NCBI GenBank assembly: GCA_965224025.1
Contig: OZ245033.1
Span: 4,032,001 to 4,096,000 of the forward strand
Direction: 5' to 3'
Length of the DNA stretch: 64,000 nt
Source of the DNA: Candidatus Multivorans sp.
GTDB lineage: Bacteria; Acidobacteriota; Thermoanaerobaculia; Multivoradales; Multivoraceae
The position numbers and the translations under genes are program-made. The notes under the pieces are model-generated. The model made no database searches and was not told the origin of the DNA. It saw only the letters and a list, made by a program, of their open reading frames with translations. Below are positions 2,686 to 15,004 of the stretch, piece by piece. Position 1 is the stretch's first letter; each line of letters starts with the position of its first letter.

Positions 2686-4044
2686 TCACCCTCCCCTTCG
2701 CTCCGCCCGCAACCGCCCGAAGTAGTCGAACGCCGCTCGCTTCACCTTGGGGGCCAGCAGCAGCGTCGCGATCAGGTTCGGCACCGCCATCAACGCCAGC
2801 GCCGTGTCGATCAGGTTGATCACCATGCCGGCGCTCCACCAGGCGCCGACGAAGATGCCCCCGAGGTAGAACCAAGTGTAAAGGCCGTCCCGCTTCGCGC
2901 CGAACAGGTAGGCGAAGCAGCGCTTGCCGTAGTACGAGTAGCTGACCATCGTCGAGATCGCGAACATCATCACGATCAGCACCAGCAACGCGCGGCCCGG
3001 CGCGCCCAGGGTGCTCTGGACCGCGTCCGCGGTCAGCGAAACGCCGGTGATCTCGCCGACGGTCTCCAGGCCGCTCGACAGGATCACGAAGGCAGTCAGG
3101 CTGCAGACCACGATGGTGTCGATGAAGGGGCCCAGCATCGCGACCAGCCCCTCCCGGACCGGTTCGTTCGTCTTCGCGGCGCCGTGGGCGAGGGGCGCTG
3201 TGCCGAGCCCGGCCTCGTTCGAGAACGCGGCGCGCCGGACGCCGATCATCATGGCCTGCTGGAAGCCGATCCCCATGGCGCCGCCGGCCGCGGCGGCGCC
3301 GGTGAAGGCTTCGCGGAAGATGCGGCCGAACACCTCGACGGCAACGTCCGAGCGCACGAACAGGACGCAGAGCGCCATGCCCAGGTACAGCAGGCACATG
3401 ACCGGCACGAATCGTCCCGTCACCGCGCCGATCCGTTCGACGCCTCCGAAGGCCACCAGCGCCACCAGGGCGACGCAGCCCACGCCGGCCAGGCGCGGAT
3501 CGAGTCCGAACTGGGCGTCCAGGAGTTCCGCCACCTGGTTGCTCTGGAACATCGGCAGGCAGCCGAACAGGCCGAAGGTGCAGAACATGATCGCCAGCGG
3601 CCGGAACTTCTTTCCGAGACCGAGTTCGATCGTGTACATCGTCCCGCCGAGGAGCGCGCCCCGCTCGTCCCGGCCGCGGTAGATCTGGGACAACGTGCAG
3701 GAGAAGAACTTGGTGCCCATGCCGACGACAGCCGCCACCCACATCCAGAACACGGCACCCGCGCCGCCCTGAGTGACGGCGATCGCGACACCGCCGATGT
3801 TGCCGACGCCGATCGTCGCCGCCAGCGCCGTGGACAGCGCCTGGAAGTGGCTGATGTGCCCCGGATCGTCGTCGGAGTCGTACTTCCCGAGGGTTACCGC
3901 CGTGGCGTGCCCCATGTGGAAAAGGGGCCGAAGGCGCAGGTAGAGGCAGAAGAAGGCGCCCGAACCGATCAGCAGGACGACCAGGGGCATGCCCCAGGCG
4001 TACCCGACCGCGACCTCCAGGAAGCGGTCCAACGAGTCCAGCAT
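2686..4044 (-). CDS. Alanine/glycine:cation symporter (AGCS family)
   Basis: ISHFQALSTALAATIGVGNIGGVA, GAVFWMW, FSNEAGLGTAPLAH, GPFIDTIVVCSLT. Confidence 0.93.
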   Translation of the reverse strand: MLDSLDRFLEVAVGYAWGMPLVVLLIGSGAFFCLYLRLRPLFHMGHATAVTLGKYDSDDDPGHISHFQALSTALAATIGVGNIGGVAIAVTQGGAGAVFWMWVAAVVGMGTKFFSCTLSQIYRGRDERGALLGGTMYTIELGLGKKFRPLAIMFCTFGLFGCLPMFQSNQVAELLDAQFGLDPRLAGVGCVALVALVAFGGVERIGAVTGRFVPVMCLLYLGMALCVLFVRSDVAVEVFGRIFREAFTGAAAAGGAMGIGFQQAMMIGVRRAAFSNEAGLGTAPLAHGAAKTNEPVREGLVAMLGPFIDTIVVCSLTAFVILSSGLETVGEITGVSLTADAVQSTLGAPGRALLVLIVMMFAISTMVSYSYYGKRCFAYLFGAKRDGLYTWFYLGGIFVGAWWSAGMVINLIDTALALMAVPNLIATLLLAPKVKRAAFDYFGRLRAERRGG

Positions 4045-4095
4045 CTAGGGTTCCGTCTCCTACGCCGACTTACGAACCGGCGCATCGCACCGGCA

Positions 4096-4121
4096 GCGGG
4101 CAGGATGCCCGCGTTCCCAGG
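4096..4121 (+). repeat. REP-like palindromic 26-mer, copy 1 (GCGGGCAGGATGCCCGCGTTCCCAGG)
   Basis: Identical copy at 7675-7700; variants at 30630-30655 and 50433-50458 (reverse); all intergenic. Confidence 0.8.
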
Positions 4122-4181
4122 ATCCCGCGCGCCGGCAGCGCTTTCCGGCCGCCGCGCGCTCTCATTGGGTCACCGGCCCGA

Positions 4182-5714
4182 TCATTCGACCATCGGTTCG
4201 AGGCTCAACGGATCGCGCGCCGGCAGCATGGTGACCCCGCCGCCGATCTTCTCCGCAATCTCCGCCATCGTGGCGCGGCCATCGCTGTCGCCCGGTTCGA
4301 TCGCCTTCCAGTCGCCGACGATCAGCATGACGAGCTTGTCCGGCATCAGATGCCGCCCCGCCACCCGCTGCACATCCGCTGGTGCCACTGCCTCGATGTT
4401 CTGCCGGTAGTCCTGCCAGTAGCTGTGCGGACGGCCAAGGAACTCGTCCTGCGCGAAGATGGAGGCCACCGCCAGAGCAGACTCGAAGTTGCTCGGGAAG
4501 GTCTCGATGGCGGACGCCTTGACCGTCTGGAGTTCATCCTCAGGTACCGGTTCAGCGCGCATGCGGTCGACCTCCTCGAGCGCGATCTTGGCCGCGAAGG
4601 CCACCGTCTCGCTCTTCGACTGGAAGGCGATGCTGAGATTGCCGGGCCAGTAGTTGCCGATACCGAAGTTCGAGTACGCGCCGTAGGCGAGTCCCTCGTC
4701 CGAACGGATCCGTTTCATCAGCCGCGACGTGAAGCCGCCGCCGCCGAGGACGCCGTTCATCATCGAGAGCGCGAAGTGGTCGGGATCGTCCCAATCCTGG
4801 CGCTGGAAGGTCCGGTGGCCGATCTGCACCCGTCCCTGCGGGACGTCCTGCTGGGCGACGTAGACGCCCGCCGGGGGCTCGTGCTCCGCCCCTTGCGGCG
4901 GCCACGGCGCCTCTTGCCGTCCTTCGCCATCGAAGCGGTCAAGCAACGCCGACAGCTTGGCGGCGAGTTCGTCGCTGTCGAAGTCTCCGGCCGCCGCAAC
5001 GACCATGTGCCCCGGATGGACGTACCTGCGGTGGAAGGCGGCCAGGTTTCCCTGCTCGATCGCCGAAAGCGAGGCCTCGGTGACGAACCGTGACTCGACG
5101 TGGTCCCGTCCGTAGAGCAGCCACTGGCCTTCCCGGCCCGCTACATCGACCGGATCGTCGTTGCGCTGCTTGAGGTTCTCCAGCTCGTTCTGCTTCGCAA
5201 GATCGAGGCGCTCCACATCGAAACGGGGCTCGCTGAGCATGGAGAAGAACAGGTCGAGACACTCGTCGAGAACCGTGGACAGGCAGTTCATCGACATCCG
5301 GGCGCTCGTGCTCCCGACAAAGGACGAGAAGTTGCCGGCAACCGCTTCCACGGCCTCGTCGAAGGCCTTCGCTTCGAGTTCGCCGGCGCCGCCCGTTCGC
5401 ATCAGCGTGCCTGTGAGGTCGGCCAGCCCAGCCTGCTCCGCCGGCGCCAGGTAGGCGCCGATGCGGAGGCGCACCGTGATGTCGACCAGCGGCAGCGCGT
5501 GGTCTTCCACCAGGTAGGCGGGAACGTTGCCCGCAAGCTCGCGCCGGTAGGACTCGGCGTCGGGCAGATCGAAGTCGAGCGGACCGTAGGTCAGATCGGT
5601 CGGATGATCGACGATCTCGGCGCCGCTCTGCGCGCCGCCAGAGGCCGCCACGCCGAGGAACAGGGCCAGGAAGACCGGAACGCTCAAATGCCCAAGTTGC
5701 CCGCGACCGATCAT
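4182..5714 (-). CDS. M16 (pitrilysin-like) peptidase, non-catalytic subunit, secreted
   Basis: Start MIGRGQ overlaps upstream stop (ATGA); signal peptide; lacks HxxEH but has GGGFTSRLMKRIRSDEGLAY (R/Y pair). Confidence 0.88.
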   Translation of the reverse strand: MIGRGQLGHLSVPVFLALFLGVAASGGAQSGAEIVDHPTDLTYGPLDFDLPDAESYRRELAGNVPAYLVEDHALPLVDITVRLRIGAYLAPAEQAGLADLTGTLMRTGGAGELEAKAFDEAVEAVAGNFSSFVGSTSARMSMNCLSTVLDECLDLFFSMLSEPRFDVERLDLAKQNELENLKQRNDDPVDVAGREGQWLLYGRDHVESRFVTEASLSAIEQGNLAAFHRRYVHPGHMVVAAAGDFDSDELAAKLSALLDRFDGEGRQEAPWPPQGAEHEPPAGVYVAQQDVPQGRVQIGHRTFQRQDWDDPDHFALSMMNGVLGGGGFTSRLMKRIRSDEGLAYGAYSNFGIGNYWPGNLSIAFQSKSETVAFAAKIALEEVDRMRAEPVPEDELQTVKASAIETFPSNFESALAVASIFAQDEFLGRPHSYWQDYRQNIEAVAPADVQRVAGRHLMPDKLVMLIVGDWKAIEPGDSDGRATMAEIAEKIGGGVTMLPARDPLSLEPMVE

Positions 5715-7528
5715 GGTGCCCCCCCTTCGCCTTCCCGCAGTTCGGCTAGCCGTTCCTCGATCACGCCGCGCATCCAGTCGAGCGCCGGCCGCATCTCGTC
5801 CTCCACCTGGCCGATCTGGGCATCGATCTGCTGGAGAACCGAGTCCAATTGGGCCGGATCGTCGATCGCTTCGATCGCCTTCGCCTGGGAGATCAGGGCC
5901 GTCCGCATTTCCGGCGGCAGGGCCTCCAGTTCGGCGGGCGTCTCCTGCGCCTCGGTGCCCGCCTTGCGGTAGTAGAGGCTGACCAGCCGGTTGGACGGTT
6001 CGAAGTACTTCGCCGCCACCCGCTGCACGTCCTCGGCAGAGACCTGGTTCGTGCGCTCCGCCACCGTGTTCAGGTAGCGCCAGTCGCCCATCGCATCCAT
6101 GACCGCCAACTGGATCATCAGGAAGAACGGGTCCCGGAGTTGCCGGTAGGTGTCCGCCGAAACCCGGTTCTTGACCTTGGCGAGTTCGTCCTCCGGCACC
6201 GGCTCGGCGATCAGTTCCGCCACGACCTCGTCCCAGCCGGCGAGGAGTTGTTCGGGTGCGGCGTCGCCCTTCGTCTCGGACCGCAGGTTGAACACGCCGG
6301 CGTATTTTCTCGCCTCGTAGAAGGCGCCGGCGTTGGACGCGATCTCGGCGCCCTCGACCATTTCCTCGTACAGGCGACCGGTGCGGCCGTTGAGGACGCC
6401 CGCGATCACGTCGAGCGCGTACCCATCGGCATGTCCGAACGGCACCGCGTGGTACCGGAGCTGAAGCTGCGGCTGGCAGTCGCACTCGGCGGTGAGCCGT
6501 TTCTCGGCCAGTTGCTCGGCCTCGAGCGTGACGACATCCGGAATCTCGCGTTCGCTCCGCTCCAGGCGGCCGAAGTAGCGTTCGGCCAGTTCCCGGACCT
6601 CGGCCGGATCGAAGTTGCCGACCAGGATGCCGGTCAGATTGTTCGGGGCGTAGTAGGTGGCGAAGAACTCGTCGGCCTGGGCCTTGCTGATCACCTCCAG
6701 GTCGGACGGCCAGCCCACCACGGGCCAACTGTACGGGTGGGATTGCCAGAACATGGCGTCCGCCTGCTCGTCGTAGCGGCCCGTCGGCGTCGACTCGGTG
6801 CGCAGGCGCCTCTCCTCGTACACCACGTCGCGCTCGGAGTAGAACTCCCGGAACACCGGATTCAGCAGCCGGTCGGACTCGAGCCAGAACCAGAGTTCGA
6901 GCCTGTTCGCCGGCAACTGGTTGATGTAGACCGTGAAGTCCTCGCTGGTGAAGGCGTTCAGACTCGTGCCTCCGCCGTCGGTGTAGACCTTGTCCAGTTC
7001 GTCCTTGACCATGAGTTCCCGCTGCTCCTCCACGAGTTCCTGGAACTCCGCGCGCAGGGCGTTCAGGGTGTCGGTGCGGTGAGCCGGGTCGTAGGGGTCG
7101 TCGATCTGGCCCAGCCGGTAGCGGCGACGCTGCTCGCGGAGTTCGGCCCGGATCTGCTCCTGGACCGCCTCCTGTTCCGCGATGATCTCAAGGTCCCGCT
7201 CGATGTCCCTGGTCCCGATCGTGTGCGTGCCCTTGAACATCATGTGCTCGAAGAAGTGGGCGAGGCCGGTGATTCCCGGCCGCTCGTTCGCCGAACCGAC
7301 ATGGGCCGCCCAAGCGGCCGCCACCGTGGTCAACTCCGGGCGCCTCACGAGCAGGAAGCGCATGCCGTTGTCGAGTTCGAACTCCTCGACCGGCACGGCC
7401 GCCGCGGCCGGCGCGTCCTGAGCCGCCACGCCGCCGGGCCAGGCGAGCGGGAGTGCGAGTGCAAGCGCCGCAAGCAGAGCCACGCGGGCAGCCGCGGATC
7501 CGCCGCCGTTGTCTGGAAGCCTGGTCAC
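5711..7528 (-). CDS. M16 (pitrilysin-like) zinc peptidase, catalytic subunit, secreted
   Basis: GTG start with AGGAGG RBS; signal peptide; GSANE..GLAHFFEHMMFKGT (HxxEH), LNAFTS, ERDVVYEERR. Confidence 0.92.
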   Translation of the reverse strand: MTRLPDNGGGSAAARVALLAALALALPLAWPGGVAAQDAPAAAAVPVEEFELDNGMRFLLVRRPELTTVAAAWAAHVGSANERPGITGLAHFFEHMMFKGTHTIGTRDIERDLEIIAEQEAVQEQIRAELREQRRRYRLGQIDDPYDPAHRTDTLNALRAEFQELVEEQRELMVKDELDKVYTDGGGTSLNAFTSEDFTVYINQLPANRLELWFWLESDRLLNPVFREFYSERDVVYEERRLRTESTPTGRYDEQADAMFWQSHPYSWPVVGWPSDLEVISKAQADEFFATYYAPNNLTGILVGNFDPAEVRELAERYFGRLERSEREIPDVVTLEAEQLAEKRLTAECDCQPQLQLRYHAVPFGHADGYALDVIAGVLNGRTGRLYEEMVEGAEIASNAGAFYEARKYAGVFNLRSETKGDAAPEQLLAGWDEVVAELIAEPVPEDELAKVKNRVSADTYRQLRDPFFLMIQLAVMDAMGDWRYLNTVAERTNQVSAEDVQRVAAKYFEPSNRLVSLYYRKAGTEAQETPAELEALPPEMRTALISQAKAIEAIDDPAQLDSVLQQIDAQIGQVEDEMRPALDWMRGVIEERLAELREGEGGAP

Positions 7529-7674
7529 AAACGGTCCCCTCCTTTTCGGGTTTCCCTCCCCGCACCGCGCGAGGATATCCACCGGGGGCAAGGCGACTCT
7601 ACCGCCTCGACCGGAGCGCCGCCGCACAACGGCAACGTCCAGGATCATTCCAGAGTCCGACGCTCGCGGCGGAT

Positions 7675-7700
7675 GCGGGCAGGATGCCCGCGTTCCCAGG
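7675..7700 (+). repeat. REP-like palindromic 26-mer, copy 2
   Basis: Identical to 4096-4121. Confidence 0.8.
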
Positions 7701-7773
7701 CTCGGAAAGCCGGTTCGACAGTCCGTTCCCGGGCTCGGAGAACCGGTTCGGCGCCGATCAACGTCGCGGACGC

Positions 7774-7803
7774 TTGACACATGCTCCGCGGCGCTACTAC
7801 CAT
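7774..7803 (+). promoter_or_regulatory. sigma70-type promoter of groESL
   Basis: TTGACA (7774-7779), 18-bp spacer, TACCAT (7798-7803). Confidence 0.75.
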
Positions 7804-7829
7804 TAGCACTCACACGGGGCGACTGCTGA
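7803..7829 (+). promoter_or_regulatory. CIRCE element (HrcA operator)
   Basis: TTAGCACTC-N9-GACTGCTGA versus consensus TTAGCACTC-N9-GAGTGCTAA, abutting the -10 box upstream of groES. Confidence 0.9.
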
Positions 7830-7930
7830 CAGCGACCGCCGGAAACGCCGGTTTCCGCAGCCTCGCACAGCGACTTGCCCAACCGCAACGAACGCATCCC
7901 ACCGACACCAATCCAAGGAGGAGTTTGCTG

Positions 7931-8218
7931 GTGAGTGTACGTCCGCTTCATGACCGGGTTCTCGTCAAGAGGCTCGAGGAGGAGGAGCAGGTCCGGGGAG
8001 GCATCATCATCCCTGACGCTGCGAAGGAGAAGCCGCAGGAGGCCGAGGTCGTCGCCGTCGGTCCCGGCAAGATGCAGGAGAACGGCGAGCGTTCCGCGCT
8101 CGACGTCAGCGTCGGCGACCGCGTACTGATCGGAAAGTACTCGGGCAGCGACATCAAGATCGACGACGAAGACATGGTCATCCTCCGCGAGGACGAGATC
8201 CTCGCGGTCGTGGAATAG
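7931..8218 (+). CDS. groES: Co-chaperonin GroES
   Basis: GTG start after AGGAGG; [31 protein letters not shown]. Confidence 0.97.
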
Positions 8219-9886
<1,668 letters not shown>

Positions 9887-9927
9887 GCGAAGACGACCTC
9901 CAGGTCGACAGCCTGCGGAACGAATCG

Positions 9928-9955
9928 GGGCGGCCTTTCGGGGCCGCCCTTCTTC
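9928..9955 (+). terminator. Intrinsic terminator after groEL
   Basis: GGGCGGCC-tttcgg-GGCCGCCC followed by TTCTTC. Confidence 0.75.
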
Positions 9956-10779
9956 GTCCGGGAACTCGCGCCGCGATCGAGCGCTACGGCTTCGCGTTTC
10001 GCGGAGTGGCCGGCGCTGCGTCAATCTTCCGCAGAGCACTCTTCTATGTTGAAGAAAACAGCCCAAGCGAGAACCGAGCGCCCATCGTCGAAGTGCGCGG
10101 GCGCTGAGTATTTGAACGTATTTCCGTGCTCGTCGTCGTGCGCGAGCTCGTCGGTGTAGTCCAGTTCCACCTCGGCCAGTCCGACCGAAGCCAACGAGAC
10201 CAGTTCGCCTGTGTCGGTCCTTCCATCTCTGTCCGCATCCAACCACAGCCTCAAGGACCCGTAGATCTCGTCGCTCGCGTTGAGTCTGCCGTCATCGTTG
10301 CCGCCGTTCAACGGGTCGTCGAACATCCTCAGCGCCTGGAAGCCGTTTGGGGTGCGGCTCGGCTGTTGGGGTGAGACGTGACTGAACAGCTCTCGTCCGT
10401 CGTCAATCAGCCCGTTGCCGTTCCGGTCCAGGACGAGAAACGCATCGTCCTTGCCCGCAGTCCACGGTATCTGCTCGGTCTTGCCGTCACCGTTCAGATC
10501 AAACCCGACTCCGCCCTTGGTGCCGGTCAACTCGTAGTGGCTATCCTCGGTCGAGATGATCAAGGGGTCCTCCAGGCACTCCCAGAAGTCGATGTCGCAA
10601 TTGAGACAGAACGACCTCCTGATCCAGTAGGTCTGAGTACAGTTGAAAGCAATGGGAGGCACGAACAGGTAACCCCACCCATCTGCCCCCTTGTTCGAAA
10701 CGTGTCACCGAACGTAATCAGTTGATTAGCTGGCACGTATGGACAACCTTGCCAAACGGGAGGAAGATAGGGGATTTCT

Positions 10780-12277
10780 GCCTCTTTCGAGTTGCGAGTG
10801 GGTAGGGCGCGGGCGAGTGCAGATGCTGAGGGGGTCTTGGGATAGCGGCCTCCGCCGCCGTAGCCGCCGCCGTCGGGCTGTGGAATCTGCGGAAGACCGG
10901 TAGCGGCGAGGGCGCAAGCTGTCCGGTGGGGAGGGCGTTCGCGGCGATTTCGGGTGGCGGCTGTAGTCGCGGGCGATCGGAATGAGCAAGACTCGTCTCT
11001 CCTGTTCCGACTGAAGGAGGACGAGAGATGCAGAGGGAATTGTTCGCGAGAGCGCTGGGCGTGTCGGCGCCGTGGTTCGTTGACGGCGTGGACTTCTGTG
11101 AGAGGGAGCGTCGGTTGACGATACGGATCGACTTCAGGAAGGGCAGCCGATTCGCCCACGAGGGGGACGGCGGTTCTCATCCGGTGCACGACACGCAGAT
11201 CAAGCGCTATCGGCACCTCAACTTCTTCCAGCACGAGTGCCTGCTCGAGGCGCGAGTGCCCCGTGTGCGACTCCCCGACCAGCGGGTGGCGTTGGTGACT
11301 CCGCCCTGGTCGGGCAGATTGTCCGGCTTCACGCTGCTGTTCGAAGCCTTGATTCTGGCCATGTGCCGAGACATGACCTTCGCTGCGGTGGCCCGGTTGA
11401 CCGGGGTGTCGTGGCATCGGGTGCACGCGATCTGCAAGCGCTACGTCGAGCTGGCGGTCGACCGGGACGACCTCTCCGAACTGCGCCACGTGGCCATTGA
11501 CGAGACTTCCCGCGCCAAGGGGCACGACTACGTGACCGCGGTCGCCGACAGCGAGCGCCGGCGCGTGGTGTTCCTCGCCGAGGGACGCAAGTCCGGCACG
11601 ATCGAGGAGTTCGCCGACGATCTGCAAAGGCGCGGCGGCGATCCCGCCGCGATCAGCCGGGCGTCCATCGACATGTCGGCCGCCTTCCTCAAGGGCGTCG
11701 CCGAGAATCTCCCCAACGCCGAGGTGACCCTCGACAAGTTCCACGTCATGGCCCTGGCCTCGAAGGCGGTGGACGAGACCCGGCGCCTCGAACAGCGCCT
11801 CGATCCGTCGCTGAAGGGCCTGCGCTGGACGCTGCTCAAGAACCGCGACTCCCTGACGCCGGCCCAACGGGCCGACCTCGACCGCTTCGTCAAGAGGGTC
11901 GCCAGCCGACGCACCGCACGCGCCTGGCTCTATCGGGAGCAACTCCGCGAAATTCTCAACCGCAAGCAGATCAACGTCGTGCTGCGAATGCTCCATCAGT
12001 GGTGCACCAACGTGAACCGCTCCAAGGTCGAACCCATGAAGGCCGTCGCCCGCACCATCCGAAAGCACCTGCAAGCGATCGCTGCCTGGGCGCGAACCCG
12101 GCAGACCAACGGCTTCCTCGAAGCCCTCAACGGACTCTTCCAGTCCGCCAAACGCAAGGCCAGAGGCTACAAGCGATTCGACACCATACGCATCGCCTTC
12201 TTCCTCATCGCCGGCAAACTCGACTTCCACACGCTCAACCCGCACACCGCTTGACCCACTCGCAATTCAAAAGAGCC
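10780..12277 (+). mobile_element. ISL3-family insertion sequence (1498 bp)
   Basis: 24-bp imperfect terminal IRs (10780-10803 / 12254-12277, 21/24 match); 8-bp direct repeat GGATTTCT at 10772-10779 and 12278-12285. Confidence 0.95.
11028..12254 (+). CDS. ISL3-family transposase
   Basis: YRHLNFFQHEC, VAIDETS, SIDMSAAF, LDKFHV, TNGFLEALNGLFQSAKRKARGY. Confidence 0.95.
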   Translation: MQRELFARALGVSAPWFVDGVDFCERERRLTIRIDFRKGSRFAHEGDGGSHPVHDTQIKRYRHLNFFQHECLLEARVPRVRLPDQRVALVTPPWSGRLSGFTLLFEALILAMCRDMTFAAVARLTGVSWHRVHAICKRYVELAVDRDDLSELRHVAIDETSRAKGHDYVTAVADSERRRVVFLAEGRKSGTIEEFADDLQRRGGDPAAISRASIDMSAAFLKGVAENLPNAEVTLDKFHVMALASKAVDETRRLEQRLDPSLKGLRWTLLKNRDSLTPAQRADLDRFVKRVASRRTARAWLYREQLREILNRKQINVVLRMLHQWCTNVNRSKVEPMKAVARTIRKHLQAIAAWARTRQTNGFLEALNGLFQSAKRKARGYKRFDTIRIAFFLIAGKLDFHTLNPHTA

Positions 12278-12616
12278 GGATTTCTTCTACTAAATCGAGA
12301 CAGTGTCCCCTCGTCGTGTGGTCATGCTGGTGTGTGGTGGTGTAGCAAAGAGGATTGCACTCCACGTTCCATATTCTGGTCGTGCTTCCCGGAGTCGGAC
12401 ATGCCCAAGGCGTCGGGATGTCATGAAGCAGCGCTCCAAATGCACAAATGCCCCACCCAATGCGCCCAACGGTGTCCCCAACGCCGGCCGTAGGCGATCC
12501 GACAGGCTTGGGGTCAACGTCCGTACCGACCTGTGCGCCGACAGGGCCCATGGCCCACGCCGTTGTGGCGACCAGAAGAAGGAAGAACGGCCTGTGTCTT
12601 GGTGTGATCGCGACTC

Positions 12617-13657
12617 TCATTGTTCAAGGAACCGAGACGCGAGGCCGTCAATCTCAGCCCGGAGCGACGCTGGCATGTTGTCCCTCAGCAAATCCAGTTC
12701 CGCTTCGTAGGCCGGTCTTGCATCGTCGATGGCTGATCGCAGCATCTCAGGGCGACTACCGCTGATCGTTCTCAGAAGATCGACGAACTCCGGCGCGCGG
12801 CGCCTTGTCGCCCCGAGGCCCAACTCTTCCAGCTCCGGCGGCGACGCCCTGCGCACGACGACGCTGAGCAGCGACTGCAGCCACTGCTGGGTCAAGATGG
12901 AGTCCTGTTGACGCTGAGAATCCAGGAGGGTGATCGGTCCCGGTCCATCCAGTATGGCCGCGGCAACCGCCTGTTGCTCCCGACCCAGAGAGTTCAGGCT
13001 GTCCTCAAGAAGCTGGTCCAACGCTCCGGCCCGCTCCGCTGAAGCGACTCGGCCCAACAACCTGGACAACGCTGCCGCTCTCGCGTAGCGATCGAGCACG
13101 AAACCGAGAACGTCGCGTACGTCCCGCCCAGCAACAGTTCCGTCGTCGAGCACAACTGCTCCAACCTCTACACCTACGACCGAGTAGTTCCCTCGCGTGT
13201 CGCCGGAAGCGTCCGGTTGCTGCACGACCGGCAGGTCATGTTCAACGAACCGAGTTTCGTTCGGGCGCAGCGGGGAGTACTCGGTGGGCGCGTTCGGCGC
13301 CAGTAGCCCCGTGTACTTGTCCACTGCGAAACTGGAAACGCGGGCGGCCCCCGAATCAGAGCCAGCCACGAGATCAAGAGACCAGGCGGTAATCGTCCTC
13401 TGACTTCCGTTGCGGAGTGTCACCTGAACCTTGTCCTGGGGCGTCACGAAGACATCGTCGACCAAGAGAGCTTCCTCGGCGAGCACAGGCGCCACCGAAA
13501 TCGGGTTCGATGCGTACTGCGCCTCAATGAGAGCAGGCAGGCTCCTTAGTGGGACGGGTACGACGCTGTCTGGGTCTTGGGCGTTGGCCAACAGGGCCAC
13601 CAGCGCCAACGGCGCCAGCAGCCCAAGGCTGACCAGGTTCCGATTCATGTGTGTCAC
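12617..13657 (-). CDS. Secreted hypothetical protein, translationally coupled to the Cys-rich/SPM gene
   Basis: AGGAG RBS; signal peptide MNRNLVSLGLLAPLALVALLANA; Ig-like stretch VQVTLRNGSQRTITAW; stop overlaps next start (ATGA 12617-12620). Confidence 0.75.
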   Translation of the reverse strand: MTHMNRNLVSLGLLAPLALVALLANAQDPDSVVPVPLRSLPALIEAQYASNPISVAPVLAEEALLVDDVFVTPQDKVQVTLRNGSQRTITAWSLDLVAGSDSGAARVSSFAVDKYTGLLAPNAPTEYSPLRPNETRFVEHDLPVVQQPDASGDTRGNYSVVGVEVGAVVLDDGTVAGRDVRDVLGFVLDRYARAAALSRLLGRVASAERAGALDQLLEDSLNSLGREQQAVAAAILDGPGPITLLDSQRQQDSILTQQWLQSLLSVVVRRASPPELEELGLGATRRRAPEFVDLLRTISGSRPEMLRSAIDDARPAYEAELDLLRDNMPASLRAEIDGLASRFLEQ

Positions 13658-13930: not shown

Positions 13931-15004
13931 ATGTCATCTGCACCGTCCGACCAACCCGTCTGGCTCTGGTGGAGCGGCGGCAAGGACTCGGCGTGGGTGC
14001 TCCACACGCTACGGAACGACCCGAAGTGGGAGGTGCGTGGGCTCGTCGCACTCGTCAATCGGAAGAACGGCCGGGTGACCATGCACGGAGTCCGTCGCCG
14101 CTTGATCGAGCGTCAGGCAGCCGCGGTCGGCCTGCCGCTCAAGCTGATCCAGTTCGACTGGACAGCCTCCGCGAACGACCACGACACGGCCATAGGGGCG
14201 GGCCTCCTCCGTTTGTGTCAGGACGATAACGCCGAGTTCGTCGCGTTCAGCGAGCTTGGCTCACCCCGGGCCGTGGAACGCCGGTCGGCGCTTCTCGGCA
14301 GCATCGGACTCCACCCTGTGTTCCCGTTGTGGGGCCGTGACCCGGCCGACCACGCCGCGGAGATCCTGAGGGCCGGATTGAAGGCCAGGGCGTGTTCCGT
14401 GGAGACGGACCGATTGCCGGCTGACCGCGCGGGCTGCCGCTTCGACGAGGACTTCGTGGCGAGGCTGCCCCGAGGCGTCGACCCGTGCGGCGAGAACGGC
14501 GAGTTTCACACGTTCGTCGAATGGGCTCCCGGATGGCCGTCGCGGGTCCCGACGGTCTCCGGTGGCAGGATCGAGTGCTACGGCTTCGGCTTCGCGGAGA
14601 TTGAGGAGTCCGCTCGGCAACCGAAGGAGGAGGCAGCCCGCCACCCAACTGCCGGCAACGACCCGTTCGACTACTACGCCAGGCTTCGGCGGGTTCGCGA
14701 GCACGTCGATCAGCATCTCAGGGAGCCTCTCGACCTGACCACACTGGCGCCCGTCGCGGCGATGAGTGCCGGGGGGTTCGGGAGGTTCTTTCGCGAAGCC
14801 ACCGGGCAGTCACTCCACGATTGGGTGGTCGGTCGTCGCCTCGAGCGAGCCGTCATCCCCCTCCGCGACCACAACGAACCGATCGGTCGAGTGGCCGAGG
14901 CCGTCGGTTTCGGCTCTGAACGAACGTTCCGCAGGCTGTTCCAGGGGCGATTCGGCTGTACTCCGTCCCGGTTCCGGTCAGAAGTACGGGGTGGACGCGG
15001 CTGA
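13931..15004 (+). CDS. PP-loop ATPase (diphthine-ammonia ligase/Dph6-like) fused to C-terminal AraC HTH domain
   Basis: WSGGKDS PP-loop, MHGVR, PVFPLWG, GVDPCGENGEFHTFV, then LRRVREHVDQHLREPL..LA..AAMS..FGRFFREATG..IGRVAEAVGFGSERTFRRLF..FGCTPSRFR. Confidence 0.88.
   Translation: MSSAPSDQPVWLWWSGGKDSAWVLHTLRNDPKWEVRGLVALVNRKNGRVTMHGVRRRLIERQAAAVGLPLKLIQFDWTASANDHDTAIGAGLLRLCQDDNAEFVAFSELGSPRAVERRSALLGSIGLHPVFPLWGRDPADHAAEILRAGLKARACSVETDRLPADRAGCRFDEDFVARLPRGVDPCGENGEFHTFVEWAPGWPSRVPTVSGGRIECYGFGFAEIEESARQPKEEAARHPTAGNDPFDYYARLRRVREHVDQHLREPLDLTTLAPVAAMSAGGFGRFFREATGQSLHDWVVGRRLERAVIPLRDHNEPIGRVAEAVGFGSERTFRRLFQGRFGCTPSRFRSEVRGGRG

Follow-up and report, generated by a model that had tools for sequence, protein, structure and literature searches.

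The window, a stretch of 64,000 nucleotides of the uncultured acidobacterium Candidatus Multivorans sp., contains a broken gene whose C-terminal module is truly homologous to the Ca2+-dependent module by which the meningococcal protein FrpC processes itself (self-processing module, SPM). The gene, at 12620..10021 of the minus strand, is a pseudogene in the window, inactivated by an ISL3 insertion and a frameshift, and the product of the intact gene is an exported precursor of about 365 residues. The locus is considered, with moderate confidence, to be the remnant of a two-gene cassette of Thermoanaerobaculia, the intact copies of which self-cleave and release or attach an N-terminal passenger domain. 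The gene belongs to a very large SPM family outside the toxin-like proteins in which the SPM was described.

Organisation and inactivation of the gene

The pieces of the gene are found in two minus-strand ORFs, one of 117 residues with a signal-peptide-like start (12620..12267) and the other of 213 residues (10662..10021), which lie on either side of an ISL3-family insertion sequence (Table 1). An earlier note on this DNA had described the ISL3 element, the target-site duplication, the frameshift and a number of motifs, and all of them are present in the sequence where it had placed them; a conserved partner gene upstream had escaped it. The 5' piece aligns to residues 1-106 of an intact orthologue, P0003. 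Counted across its three pieces the passenger has 10 Cys (5 + 1 + 4), and the predicted scissile bond is encoded by gac (Asp, 10569-10567) and ccc (Pro, 10566-10564), both in agreement with the earlier reading. The stop codon of the broken gene is at 10023-10021. In the current analysis signal peptides have been recognised solely from visual inspection and a hydrophobicity rule.

The assignment of the insertion to the ISL3 family is based on its transposase (Pfam matches DDE_Tnp_ISL3, E=7.6e-63; HTH_Tnp_ISL3, E=5.3e-18; Zn_ribbon_ISL3, 3.5e-4), on terminal inverted repeats that are complementary at 21 of 24 nucleotides when the arms are compared by reading, and on the perfect 8-bp direct repeat that flanks the element. 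A blastn search of the element against the window reveals no second copy. The L002 orthologue represents the empty site, with a sequence continuous over the insertion point (...CLDLVEEIPYLPPVWQGC...), and the removal of the element with one copy of the duplication, as had been suggested before, is therefore a valid repair.

The upstream frame is open to 10563, with a stop at 10562-10560, and the frame of the module is open only from 10704. Comparison with the intact orthologues places a single frameshift in or adjoining the five-G run. These orthologues are collinear proteins of 320-358 residues with a signal-peptide-like N-terminus, and since each is a single open frame, programmed frameshifting and a fortuitous ORF are both rejected. 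Both orthologues found in Candidatus Multivorans genomes are broken, in ways that differ from the copy in the window. It is conceivable, and we hold the view only tentatively, that the break is an error of assembly instead of a mutation and that the insertion alone inactivates the gene. The break is situated in a homopolymer and the frame changes beside a G-run, in the 5' part of the copies, in two Candidatus Multivorans assemblies too, a recurrent pattern that would fit long-read homopolymer miscalls; a gene interrupted by an insertion sequence is, however, already free to decay.

Table 1. Features of the locus in the window, with their positions and the basis of each assignment
Feature	Position	Strand	Basis
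ISL3-family insertion sequence, 1498 bp, 24-nt terminal inverted repeats 10780-10803 / 12254-12277	10780..12277	+	inverted-repeat search
Intact ISL3 transposase ORF, 408 aa	11028..12254	+	Pfam
Target-site duplication GGATTTCT, left of the insertion sequence	10772..10779	.	direct repeat
Target-site duplication GGATTTCT, right of the insertion sequence	12278..12285	.	direct repeat
Intact partner gene, 346 aa, signal-peptide-like N-terminus	12617..13657	-	ORF, sequence
5' piece: signal-peptide-like N-terminus (MRVAITPRHRPFFLLLVATTAWAMGPVGAQ...) and first half of passenger, 5 Cys	12279..12620	-	ORF list, sequence
Middle passenger piece, upstream frame (…YLPPVWQGCPYVPANQLITFGDTFRTR; 1 Cys)	10691..10771	-	translation; collinear with L002 and P0003
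Five-G run, reading-frame break	10686..10690	-	sequence; both frames compared with orthologues
Final passenger piece, module frame (ADGWGYLFVPPIAFNCTQTYWIRRSFCLNCDIDFWECLE; 4 Cys)	10570..10685	-	translation
Asp-Pro codons gac ccc, predicted scissile bond	10564..10569	-	sequence; Pro equivalent to FrpC P415
SPM-like module, 181 aa, Pro to last residue	10024..10566	-	phmmer against PDB, profile search

Homology of the C-terminal module with the FrpC SPM

A phmmer search of the PDB with the module of the window identifies 6sjw_A (E=8e-17) and 6sjx_A (E=1.1e-16), and in the alignment with 6sjw (query residues 33-183, chain residues 1-147) the first residue is precisely the Pro next after the scissile bond (Pro415). 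A similarity of this degree is far in excess of chance. A profile search matches the solved FrpC module with an E-value of 4.5e-28 over about 125 residues, the single-sequence search covering about 150. An AF2 model (mean pLDDT 71.9) was made of the intact orthologue P0003, because the copy in the window is broken. By Foldseek the model matches 6sjx with an E-value of 3.3e-10 and a target-normalised TM of 0.71 in 184 columns that span the whole 182-residue target, and 6sjw with an E-value of 3.6e-9 and a TM of 0.69; besides these two there is nothing at E<=0.001. The likeness to the FrpC SPM proposed in the earlier note is hence borne out, for the C-terminal 182 residues, by predicted structure as well as by sequence.

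PF26745.1, a precomputed domain of the protein database, is assigned to the 213-residue ORF and to every homologue among the matches listed. The module is the only one of its kind in the window, and the ORF comes to its end 6-7 residues beyond the module's final conserved strand.

Residues retained and replaced relative to FrpC

Residues were mapped through the 6sjw alignment, with FrpC numbering taken from Kuban 2020. As the PDB alignments of the window module, the profile and P0029 end at chain residue 141-150, D579 was mapped by way of an RTX-type module of a Sphingopyxis plasmid, in an ungapped alignment of GNT...AW-A-VFF with GNT...MG-D-LLL of FrpC.

The module of the window retains W451, D456, L475, G491 and W519 of FrpC, and the three EF-hand-like Ca2+ loops D462-E474, D499-D511 and D521-E532 are present as DRNGNGLIDDGRE, NGGNDDGRLNASD and DADRDGRTDTGE, with key positions invariant in the clade. 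The first Ca2+ site is lost: D419, D421, D423 and G424 are replaced by S, E, S and H, D456 alone being kept, and the DxDxDG motif of this site is absent from the clade. G477-D478 is represented by an invariant Ser-His, so that D478 corresponds to His. The counterpart of D579 in the window is Ala, and all 19/19 clade members have either Ala or Val there.

In FrpC, D478 and D579 are situated beside the scissile bond in a transient fifth Ca2+ site; processing is completely abolished by D579A and not by D579N, it is strongly reduced by D478A, and P415A renders the module cleavage-incompetent (Kuban 2020). With D478 replaced by His, D579 by Ala or Val and the first site gone, a working identical to that of FrpC is not to be assumed, and these replacements, as read from the alignments, count against the self-cleavage explanation. 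The earlier description of the module as FrpC-type stands for its sequence and predicted fold and falls short at D478, D579 and the first Ca2+ site. If the clade cleaves, it probably uses a remodelled catalytic environment, given that the first site and both acidic residues of the fifth are missing and that Ser-His is invariant at 477/478.

Passenger domain

The passenger consists of about 150 residues, and 8 of its Cys are invariant in the clade. Mean pairwise identity among 15 orthologues (105 pairs) is 27% in the passenger as against 65% in the module; the passenger evolves much faster than the module, a contrast that the earlier note had proposed to look for. In the P0003 model, residues 50-160 of the passenger form a confident β domain (pLDDT ~73-93), after which residues 163-169 are modelled as a linker with low confidence, and the short linker that joins the passenger to the module ends in Cys-Leu-Glu-Asp.

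The local Pfam and NCBIfam collections give no match to the passenger and the ESM Atlas none that is usable. Apart from the module, Foldseek detects no fold match in the PDB (next E=0.08). A word-based search with residues 28-170 of P0003 returned four matches, namely the query itself, two close relatives and the ORF of the window, and nothing else.

The upstream partner gene

An intact gene is located directly upstream (Table 1), and its stop codon and the start codon of the broken gene share an overlap of 4 bases (ATGA). The same overlap is seen in L001, L003, L004, L005 and L008, and a homologue of the partner is encoded immediately upstream of the module gene in 8/8 of the loci with an Asp/Glu-Pro junction (L001-L008) and in none of L009-L079. 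The signal-peptide-like segment of the partner contains no Cys, and hence no lipobox.

The structure model of the partner is composed of a β-sandwich and a helical domain, and Foldseek finds generic β-sandwich matches to it, with nothing at E<=0.001. Pfam and NCBIfam give sub-threshold noise only, a profile search against the PDB reveals no sequence similarity (best E 1.3), and the ESM Atlas places the partner with unnamed acidobacterial clusters at 0.93, the recognition value being below the mark. Complex prediction of a passenger (P0009 residues 22-165) with a partner (L004 residues 31-346) gave scores of 0.08, 0.80 and 0.00, the median of which does not reach the mark.

The junction in the clade and in the wider family

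The family comprises ~26,000 cluster representatives, which are mostly C-terminal modules of exported acidobacterial proteins, and 79/79 loci fetched belong to the phylum Acidobacteriota. The module is preceded by unrelated passengers that include M10/M12 metallopeptidases, a subtilase with PA14, NHL/SGL repeats and ricin-type lectins with CBM6. In a quick tree the clade of the window forms a separate long-branched group (SH-aLRT 100), the base of the acidobacterial group being without resolution.

Of the 19 clade members scored, 15 have Asp-Pro at the junction and the other 4 have Glu-Pro, and the Pro (+1) is invariant in a 15-sequence alignment. Over 364 scored modules the residue that precedes it is Ser in 261, Thr in 75, Asp in 19, Cys in 5 and Glu in 4; it is never Gly, Ala or Asn. 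The combination of Ser/Thr/Cys-Pro with G-x at 477/478 and Asp at 579 is observed in 162/183 scored modules, and that of an acid with Ser-His and Ala or Val in 19. As most of the relatives have Ser/Thr-Pro, the fold as such needs no Asp-Pro bond, a point against the self-cleavage explanation. The earlier note had regarded a lack of conservation of Asp-Pro in homologues as fatal to its proposal: the acidic junction is kept in the close clade, and outside it Asp-Pro is not conserved. No report of self-cleavage at Glu-Pro has been found in the literature searched, which also counts against the self-cleavage explanation.

Proposed function

In the proposed cassette, gene 1 (13657..12617) encodes an exported protein of 346 residues, and gene 2 (12620..10021), translationally coupled to it, encoded a product with a signal peptide, an all-β passenger held by disulfides, a short linker and the Pro that opens the C-terminal SPM homologue. 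In intact copies the module would fold after Sec export, strain the Asp-Pro bond and cut itself off, leaving the passenger with a C-terminal Asp anhydride. Hydrolysis of the anhydride would release the passenger, or a nearby amine may capture it; by analogy with FrpD and FrpC, the candidate acceptor to be considered first is the co-encoded partner. Clip-and-link is the most likely, though putative, ancestral function. Sec export in a diderm reaches the periplasm only. Host proteins had also been suggested as targets of crosslinking, a suggestion we do not follow, as nothing points to a host and the relatives are uncultured Acidobacteriota.

The module might alternatively be a non-cleaving, Ca2+-dependent C-terminal domain for folding, anchoring or sorting of exported acidobacterial proteins, with the junction residue kept for some other reason, for instance because a dedicated peptidase or transpeptidase recognises it or because it forms a structural turn; the protein of the window would then have been simply a periplasmic or surface protein of two domains. 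This we consider rather unlikely. The occurrence of the module <=10 residues from the C-terminus in 356/377 family members examined, behind passengers as dissimilar as those listed above, is in its favour, as are the Ser/Thr-Pro junctions of 336/364 modules, which are incapable of forming an Asp anhydride, and the absence from the clade of D579, the residue whose change to Ala abolishes processing in FrpC. Yet 364/364 junctions carry S, T, C, D or E, all of them potential nucleophiles, which is more than a turn would call for, the +1 Pro, whose replacement by Ala in FrpC prevents cleavage, does not vary, and the acid at -1 is kept in the clade although the adjoining passenger falls to ~20% identity.

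The constant presence of a potential nucleophile before Pro suggests a broader proposal, which we regard as doubtful, in which the SPM fold, far from being peculiar to RTX proteins, is a general, self-contained C-terminal 'cut-and-attach' tag of exported acidobacterial proteins, and the chemistry by which the one strained junction cleaves itself differs from branch to branch. The clade of the window would form an Asp/Glu anhydride, aided by the invariant His in place of the fifth Ca2+, and weld its passenger to the partner or to an amine of the envelope, and the Ser/Thr/Cys branch would employ an N-to-O or N-to-S acyl shift.

It is hardly conceivable that the likeness to FrpC comes merely from Ca2+-binding loops, EF-hand-like or FG-GAP-like, that came together by chance, or that the ORF pieces never formed one gene: EF-hand and FG-GAP are indeed matched only weakly in local Pfam (E 0.19-0.5) and NCBIfam has no model matching the module, but this is refuted by the E-values across the solved module, the fold match over the entire target, the intact collinear orthologues and the empty site in L002.

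The preferred reading, of self-cleaving intact copies, is of wider interest as hardly any natural protein devices besides the SPM generate a reactive anhydride on demand. It is already in use as a ligation tool, NeissLock, according to excerpts of PMC7846742 and PMC12538545. Should the acidobacterial forms cleave, they would serve as compact natural variants that have fewer Ca2+ sites, as a natural experiment on the residues that the chemistry needs and possibly as a new bacterial route to the covalent fixing of exported proteins; if they do not, the SPM fold would have a second and far commoner use.

Comparison with known systems

The von Willebrand D domains of mucins and FCGBP undergo autocatalytic Asp-Pro cleavage at GDPH. 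They resemble the proposed system in being exported, disulfide-rich proteins that self-cleave at Asp-Pro, and differ from it in being eukaryotic, of unrelated fold and not driven by Ca2+-EF-hands.

According to excerpts of PMC3034196 and Kuban 2020, the gene for FrpD lies just upstream of frpC, in the frpDC operon, and FrpD binds residues 1-414 of FrpC. The locus of the window likewise has an exported protein encoded directly upstream of the SPM protein and coupled to it, a likeness in gene order alone that holds at the 8/8 clade loci; FrpD is a lipoprotein, unlike the partner, which is without a lipobox.

In excerpts of Kuban 2020 and Linhartova 2010, possession of the SPM is what sets a subclass of RTX proteins apart. 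The module of the window is homologous to it in sequence and fold, has Asp-Pro at its N-terminal edge and keeps the three EF-hand-like loops, both Trp and the 'narrow port' of L475 and G491. It differs in the lack of the first Ca2+ site, in Ser-His for G477-D478 and in Ala or Val for D579 in its clade. It is also C-terminal and not placed inside an RTX protein, with neither nonapeptide repeats nor a T1SS signal following it, in a protein with a predicted N-terminal signal peptide; its position outside any RTX/T1SS context was rightly recognised in the earlier note. The literature searched on the FrpC self-processing module, clip-and-link and Acidobacteria contains nothing on such Sec-exported C-terminal forms.

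The Ser/Thr-Pro branch, represented by exported proteins of Pyrinomonadaceae, Blastocatellia and other Acidobacteriota that are marked with PF26745.1, has modules that are 45-50% identical. Although it differs in a junction of Ser/Thr/Cys-Pro, in G-x at 477/478, in Asp at 579 and in the absence of the partner gene upstream, it shares with the protein of the window the C-terminal position of the module and the Cys-rich regions upstream of it.

Homology of the C-terminal module to the FrpC self-processing module

The broken gene of the window combines a signal-peptide-like start, a Cys-rich passenger, an Asp-Pro junction and a C-terminal module resembling Neisseria FrpC's self-processing module (SPM). 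In a phmmer search of all PDB sequences, the 213-aa ORF carrying this module retrieved only 6sjw (8e-17) and 6sjx (1.1e-16), both entries of the FrpC module, with an alignment that starts at the Pro after the scissile bond. With a family profile, the E-value for the FrpC module improves to 4.5e-28. An AlphaFold2 model of the intact orthologue P0003 (352 aa, 15-row alignment, mean pLDDT 71.9) matches 6sjx over 184 columns (E=3.3e-10; TM normalised to the target 0.71), with 6sjw following at 3.6e-9 (TM 0.69), and no further PDB fold is matched at E<=0.001. Judged by sequence profile and predicted fold, the module is a true homologue of the FrpC SPM, and the homology, including the structural match proposed as a check in the earlier note, is solid. 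PF26745.1 is annotated in the protein database on the ORF of the window and on every listed relative; NCBIfam holds no model for the module.

Occurrence of the module outside RTX proteins

The module belongs to a family of very great size: searched with a profile of the module alone, it yields 26,478 representatives of clusters at E<=0.001, of which 19,828 remain at <=1e-10 and 6,028 at <=1e-30. The 377 module-bearing proteins examined are the best hits among the matches listed, a sample in which near relatives are over-represented. In 356 of them no more than 10 residues separate the end of the module from the C-terminus. Among the 296 proteins that have a Met start and more than 60 residues upstream of the module, 223 show a strongly hydrophobic stretch at the N-terminus. 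The non-RTX, Sec-type context inferred in the earlier note is thus a real and frequent one and no singularity. The regions upstream of the module are Cys-rich, with a median of 13 Cys, and their recognisable parts are enzymes and binders unrelated to one another: peptidases of the matrixin, reprolysin-like and subtilase types, PA14, NHL/SGL, and a ricin-type lectin with CBM6. The literature searched knows the SPM only as a part of RTX proteins; since Pfam has a family model, the sequences are already catalogued, even if undiscussed. The weight of the finding lies in this family-level pattern more than in the dead copy of the window.

Orthologues, passenger and partner gene

The closest relatives form a clade of 19 modules with Asp/Glu-Pro junctions and Ser-His at FrpC positions 477/478. 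In intact orthologues, of 320-358 aa, a signal-peptide-like start is followed by a Cys-rich region, the motif C-x-[ED]-[DE]-P and then the module, and the stop comes a few residues on. Eight Cys and the Pro are invariant in 15 orthologues. Mean pairwise identity over 105 pairs is 27% in the passenger against 65% in the module, in agreement with the suggestion that the passenger varies and the module is conserved. The P0003 passenger is predicted by AlphaFold2 as a confident all-beta domain (residues 50-160, block pLDDT about 73-93), followed by a low-confidence linker (163-169) directly before Asp-Pro. Searches of the Atlas, of PDB folds and of sequences have detected no relative of the passenger beyond close kin. 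Five orthologues (P0004, P0005, P0006, P0008 and P0009) show by eye, at residues ~10-16 of the signal peptide, a lipobox-like ...L-A-C-G/S..., and from this motif some clade members may be lipoproteins. The protein of the window and P0003 have Trp (A-W-A/G) at the position of this Cys.

A partner ORF runs by 4 bases into the beginning of the broken gene. Its homologues, with 34-98% identity by tblastn, end just before the module gene in all eight loci of the clade (L001-L008), and tblastn found none upstream of the module gene in the other loci, L009-L079. An overlap of 4 bases is also seen in L001, L003, L004, L005 and L008. The partner model (pLDDT 73.9, pTM 0.71) has a beta-sandwich at about residues 64-177 and then a helical domain (181-345). 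There is no significant PDB match to the partner by fold or by sequence, and its look-alikes in the Atlas are only unnamed acidobacterial ones. L003, L005 and L007 are cassettes on one Thermoanaerobaculia chromosome; L005 has an additional degraded cassette copy (2950-4446) beside a transposase-like ORF of 462 aa, and L007 (4530-6597) has a Glu-Pro copy split across two frames.

Disruption of the module gene in Multivorans

Features of the broken gene and its surroundings (window positions)
Feature	Position	Strand	Remarks
M16 (insulinase-type) peptidase gene	5711-7450	-	beyond the GroEL gene
GroEL gene	8249-9886	+	directly downstream of the broken gene
3' ORF of broken gene	10662..10021	-	213 aa; carries the motifs quoted in the earlier note
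D and P codons	10569-10564	-	
Direct repeat GGATTTCT	10772-10779 and 12278-12285		perfect, 8 bp; flanks the ISL3 element
ISL3 element	10780-12277		from repeat search; 24-nt terminal inverted repeats
ISL3 transposase ORF	11028-12254	+	between the two gene pieces; DDE_Tnp_ISL3 E=7.6e-63, HTH_Tnp_ISL3 5.3e-18
5' ORF of broken gene	12620..12267	-	signal-peptide-like N-terminus (basic residues, 13-residue hydrophobic stretch, VGA-Q); stop inside the inverted repeat
Partner ORF	13657..12617	-	346 aa; own signal-peptide-like start; 4-base overlap (ATGA) with the start of the broken gene
Regulator-like gene	13931-15004	+	divergent; Diphthami_syn_2 (ATP-pyrophosphatase-type) domain fused to an AraC-type HTH (Pfam 1.9e-23, 1.3e-16)

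The ISL3 element is present as a single copy within the 64-kb window. At the syntenic locus L002, on a MAG chromosome of Candidatus Multivorans, the element is absent and the site reads ...CLDLVEEIPYLPPVWQGCPYVP..., so the excision of the IS together with one copy of the duplication, as carried out in the earlier note, is correct. Past the IS, the upstream frame is open to a stop at 10562-10560 and the module frame is open only from 10704; against the intact orthologues (...TFRTRGADGWGY...) a single frame change falls in or beside the five-G run 10690-10686. The three gene pieces contribute 5, 1 and 4 Cys. The initial reading of the sequence thus holds in every detail, from the ORFs, the IS and the frameshift to the 10 Cys, the motifs and the D-P codons. 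In the window, the IS together with the frame change has inactivated the gene.

The copy on the other Multivorans chromosome (L001:4747-6801) is cut by an IS unlike that of the window, with a 296-aa transposase (DUF4372 and DDE_Tnp_1, at L001 5089-5979), and its 5' part, too, changes frame at a G-run. The copy in L002 (5989-7087) carries no IS, and only its 5' part is shifted in frame; its open frame begins at 6092, in the frame that is the alternative one in the window, and this change may have arisen by mutation or may be a miscalled homopolymer. All three copies of this lineage are therefore disrupted, each differently. Errors of assembly could account for the frame changes, which lie at G-runs, but not for the two IS insertions. 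The partner gene is intact despite the disruption of the module gene, with 96-98% identity in this lineage.

The order of the broken gene, GroEL and M16 peptidase genes is the same in L002. A 1511-aa 'ORF' (5711..10246), which runs antisense through groEL, is a frame that stays open as an artefact of DNA with 68% G+C. In L001-L004 and L007, a homologue of the regulator-like gene likewise lies close to the cassette.

Junction residue and key positions of the module

Of the 377 modules, 364 allowed the residue preceding the Pro to be scored; it is Ser in 261, Thr in 75, Asp in 19, Cys in 5 and Glu in 4. Given this predominance of Ser and Thr, Asp-Pro is a minority state. The expectation that Asp-Pro is conserved among homologues holds for the 19-member Ser-His clade in the form of acid-Pro (15 Asp, 4 Glu), but not for most of the scored modules, which have Ser-, Thr- or Cys-Pro. 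Asp-Pro is present in all six RTX-type modules fetched.

The position of FrpC D579 was located with the help of an RTX-type module from a Sphingopyxis plasmid, encoded near a toxin-activating acyltransferase gene; the PDB alignment reaches chain residue 170. The GNTFKYSAPAHFDDGRSVLAW-A-VFF of the window matches the FrpC D579-LLL region without gaps, and D579 is therefore Ala in the window; D478 is His (ELF-S-H). Positions -1, 477-478 and 579 could be scored together in 183 of the proteins P0001-P0240, the other 57 being fragments or having a motif missed by the patterns. Ser, Thr or Cys with G-x and Asp is found in 162 of these, Asp or Glu with Ser-His and Ala or Val in 19, and two are exceptions to both states. 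Asp-Pro junctions outside the Ser-His clade occur in P0058 and P0229. The latter (821 aa, lectin/CBM) falls within the Ser/Thr-Pro modules and has Asp where FrpC has D579; like FrpC, this naturally occurring form thus combines the two Asp residues.

A quick maximum-likelihood tree was built from 21 acid-Pro modules, 60 randomly chosen of 340 Ser/Thr/Cys-Pro modules and, as outgroups, 6 RTX modules. It unites the acidobacterial modules (SH-aLRT 93) and places all 19 Ser-His members in a single clade on a long branch (SH-aLRT 100). The base of the tree is not resolved, so that it fits an acid kept by the clade as well as one regained.

Possible mechanism and comparison with FrpC

The FrpC module is described as folding upon binding four Ca2+, with D414, D478 and D579 transiently coordinating a fifth that helps in the twisting of the D414-P415 amide; through attack of the Asp side chain on the carbonyl of the same residue an anhydride arises, which Lys can open (Kuban et al. 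2020, PMC7078468). The same account reports that D478A strongly reduces processing and D579A abolishes it, and that D478N and D579N are tolerated, from which its authors assign a structural role to both residues. D414A abolishes cleavage according to the NeissLock paper.

For the intact ancestors of the window gene, the best-supported reading is that the precursor would be exported, the module would cleave itself at Asp-Pro, and the passenger would be released or covalently captured. We consider this reading moderately probable and no more than that, because key FrpC residues are replaced in the clade. The main rival, that the module is a non-cleaving C-terminal Ca2+ domain, is less probable. 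The clade has the predicted fold and the junction of the SPM and departs from it in two sets of residues, the first Ca2+ site and the D478/D579 pair; at D579, a point mutation to Ala abolishes processing in FrpC. These replacements are the chief ground for caution. Since the three changes are coordinated and clade-wide and accompany an invariant His next to the junction, the site looks like a remodelled one and not a decayed one. As for targets of capture by the self-cleaving form, the host proteins named in the earlier note find no support. The 79 genomic loci kept, out of 381 confirmed, come without exception from Acidobacteriota.

In comparison with FrpC, the clade of the window retains W451, D456, L475, G491, W519 and three EF-hand-like loops. 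It differs in having S, E, S and H for D419, D421, D423 and G424, Ser-His for G477-D478 and Ala/Val for D579. The partner lies directly upstream of the module gene as frpD does with respect to frpC, where the product of the upstream gene is reported to bind the clipped-off part of FrpC (Kuban et al. 2020, PMC7078468; PMC3034196); this likeness is one of analogy, not of homology.
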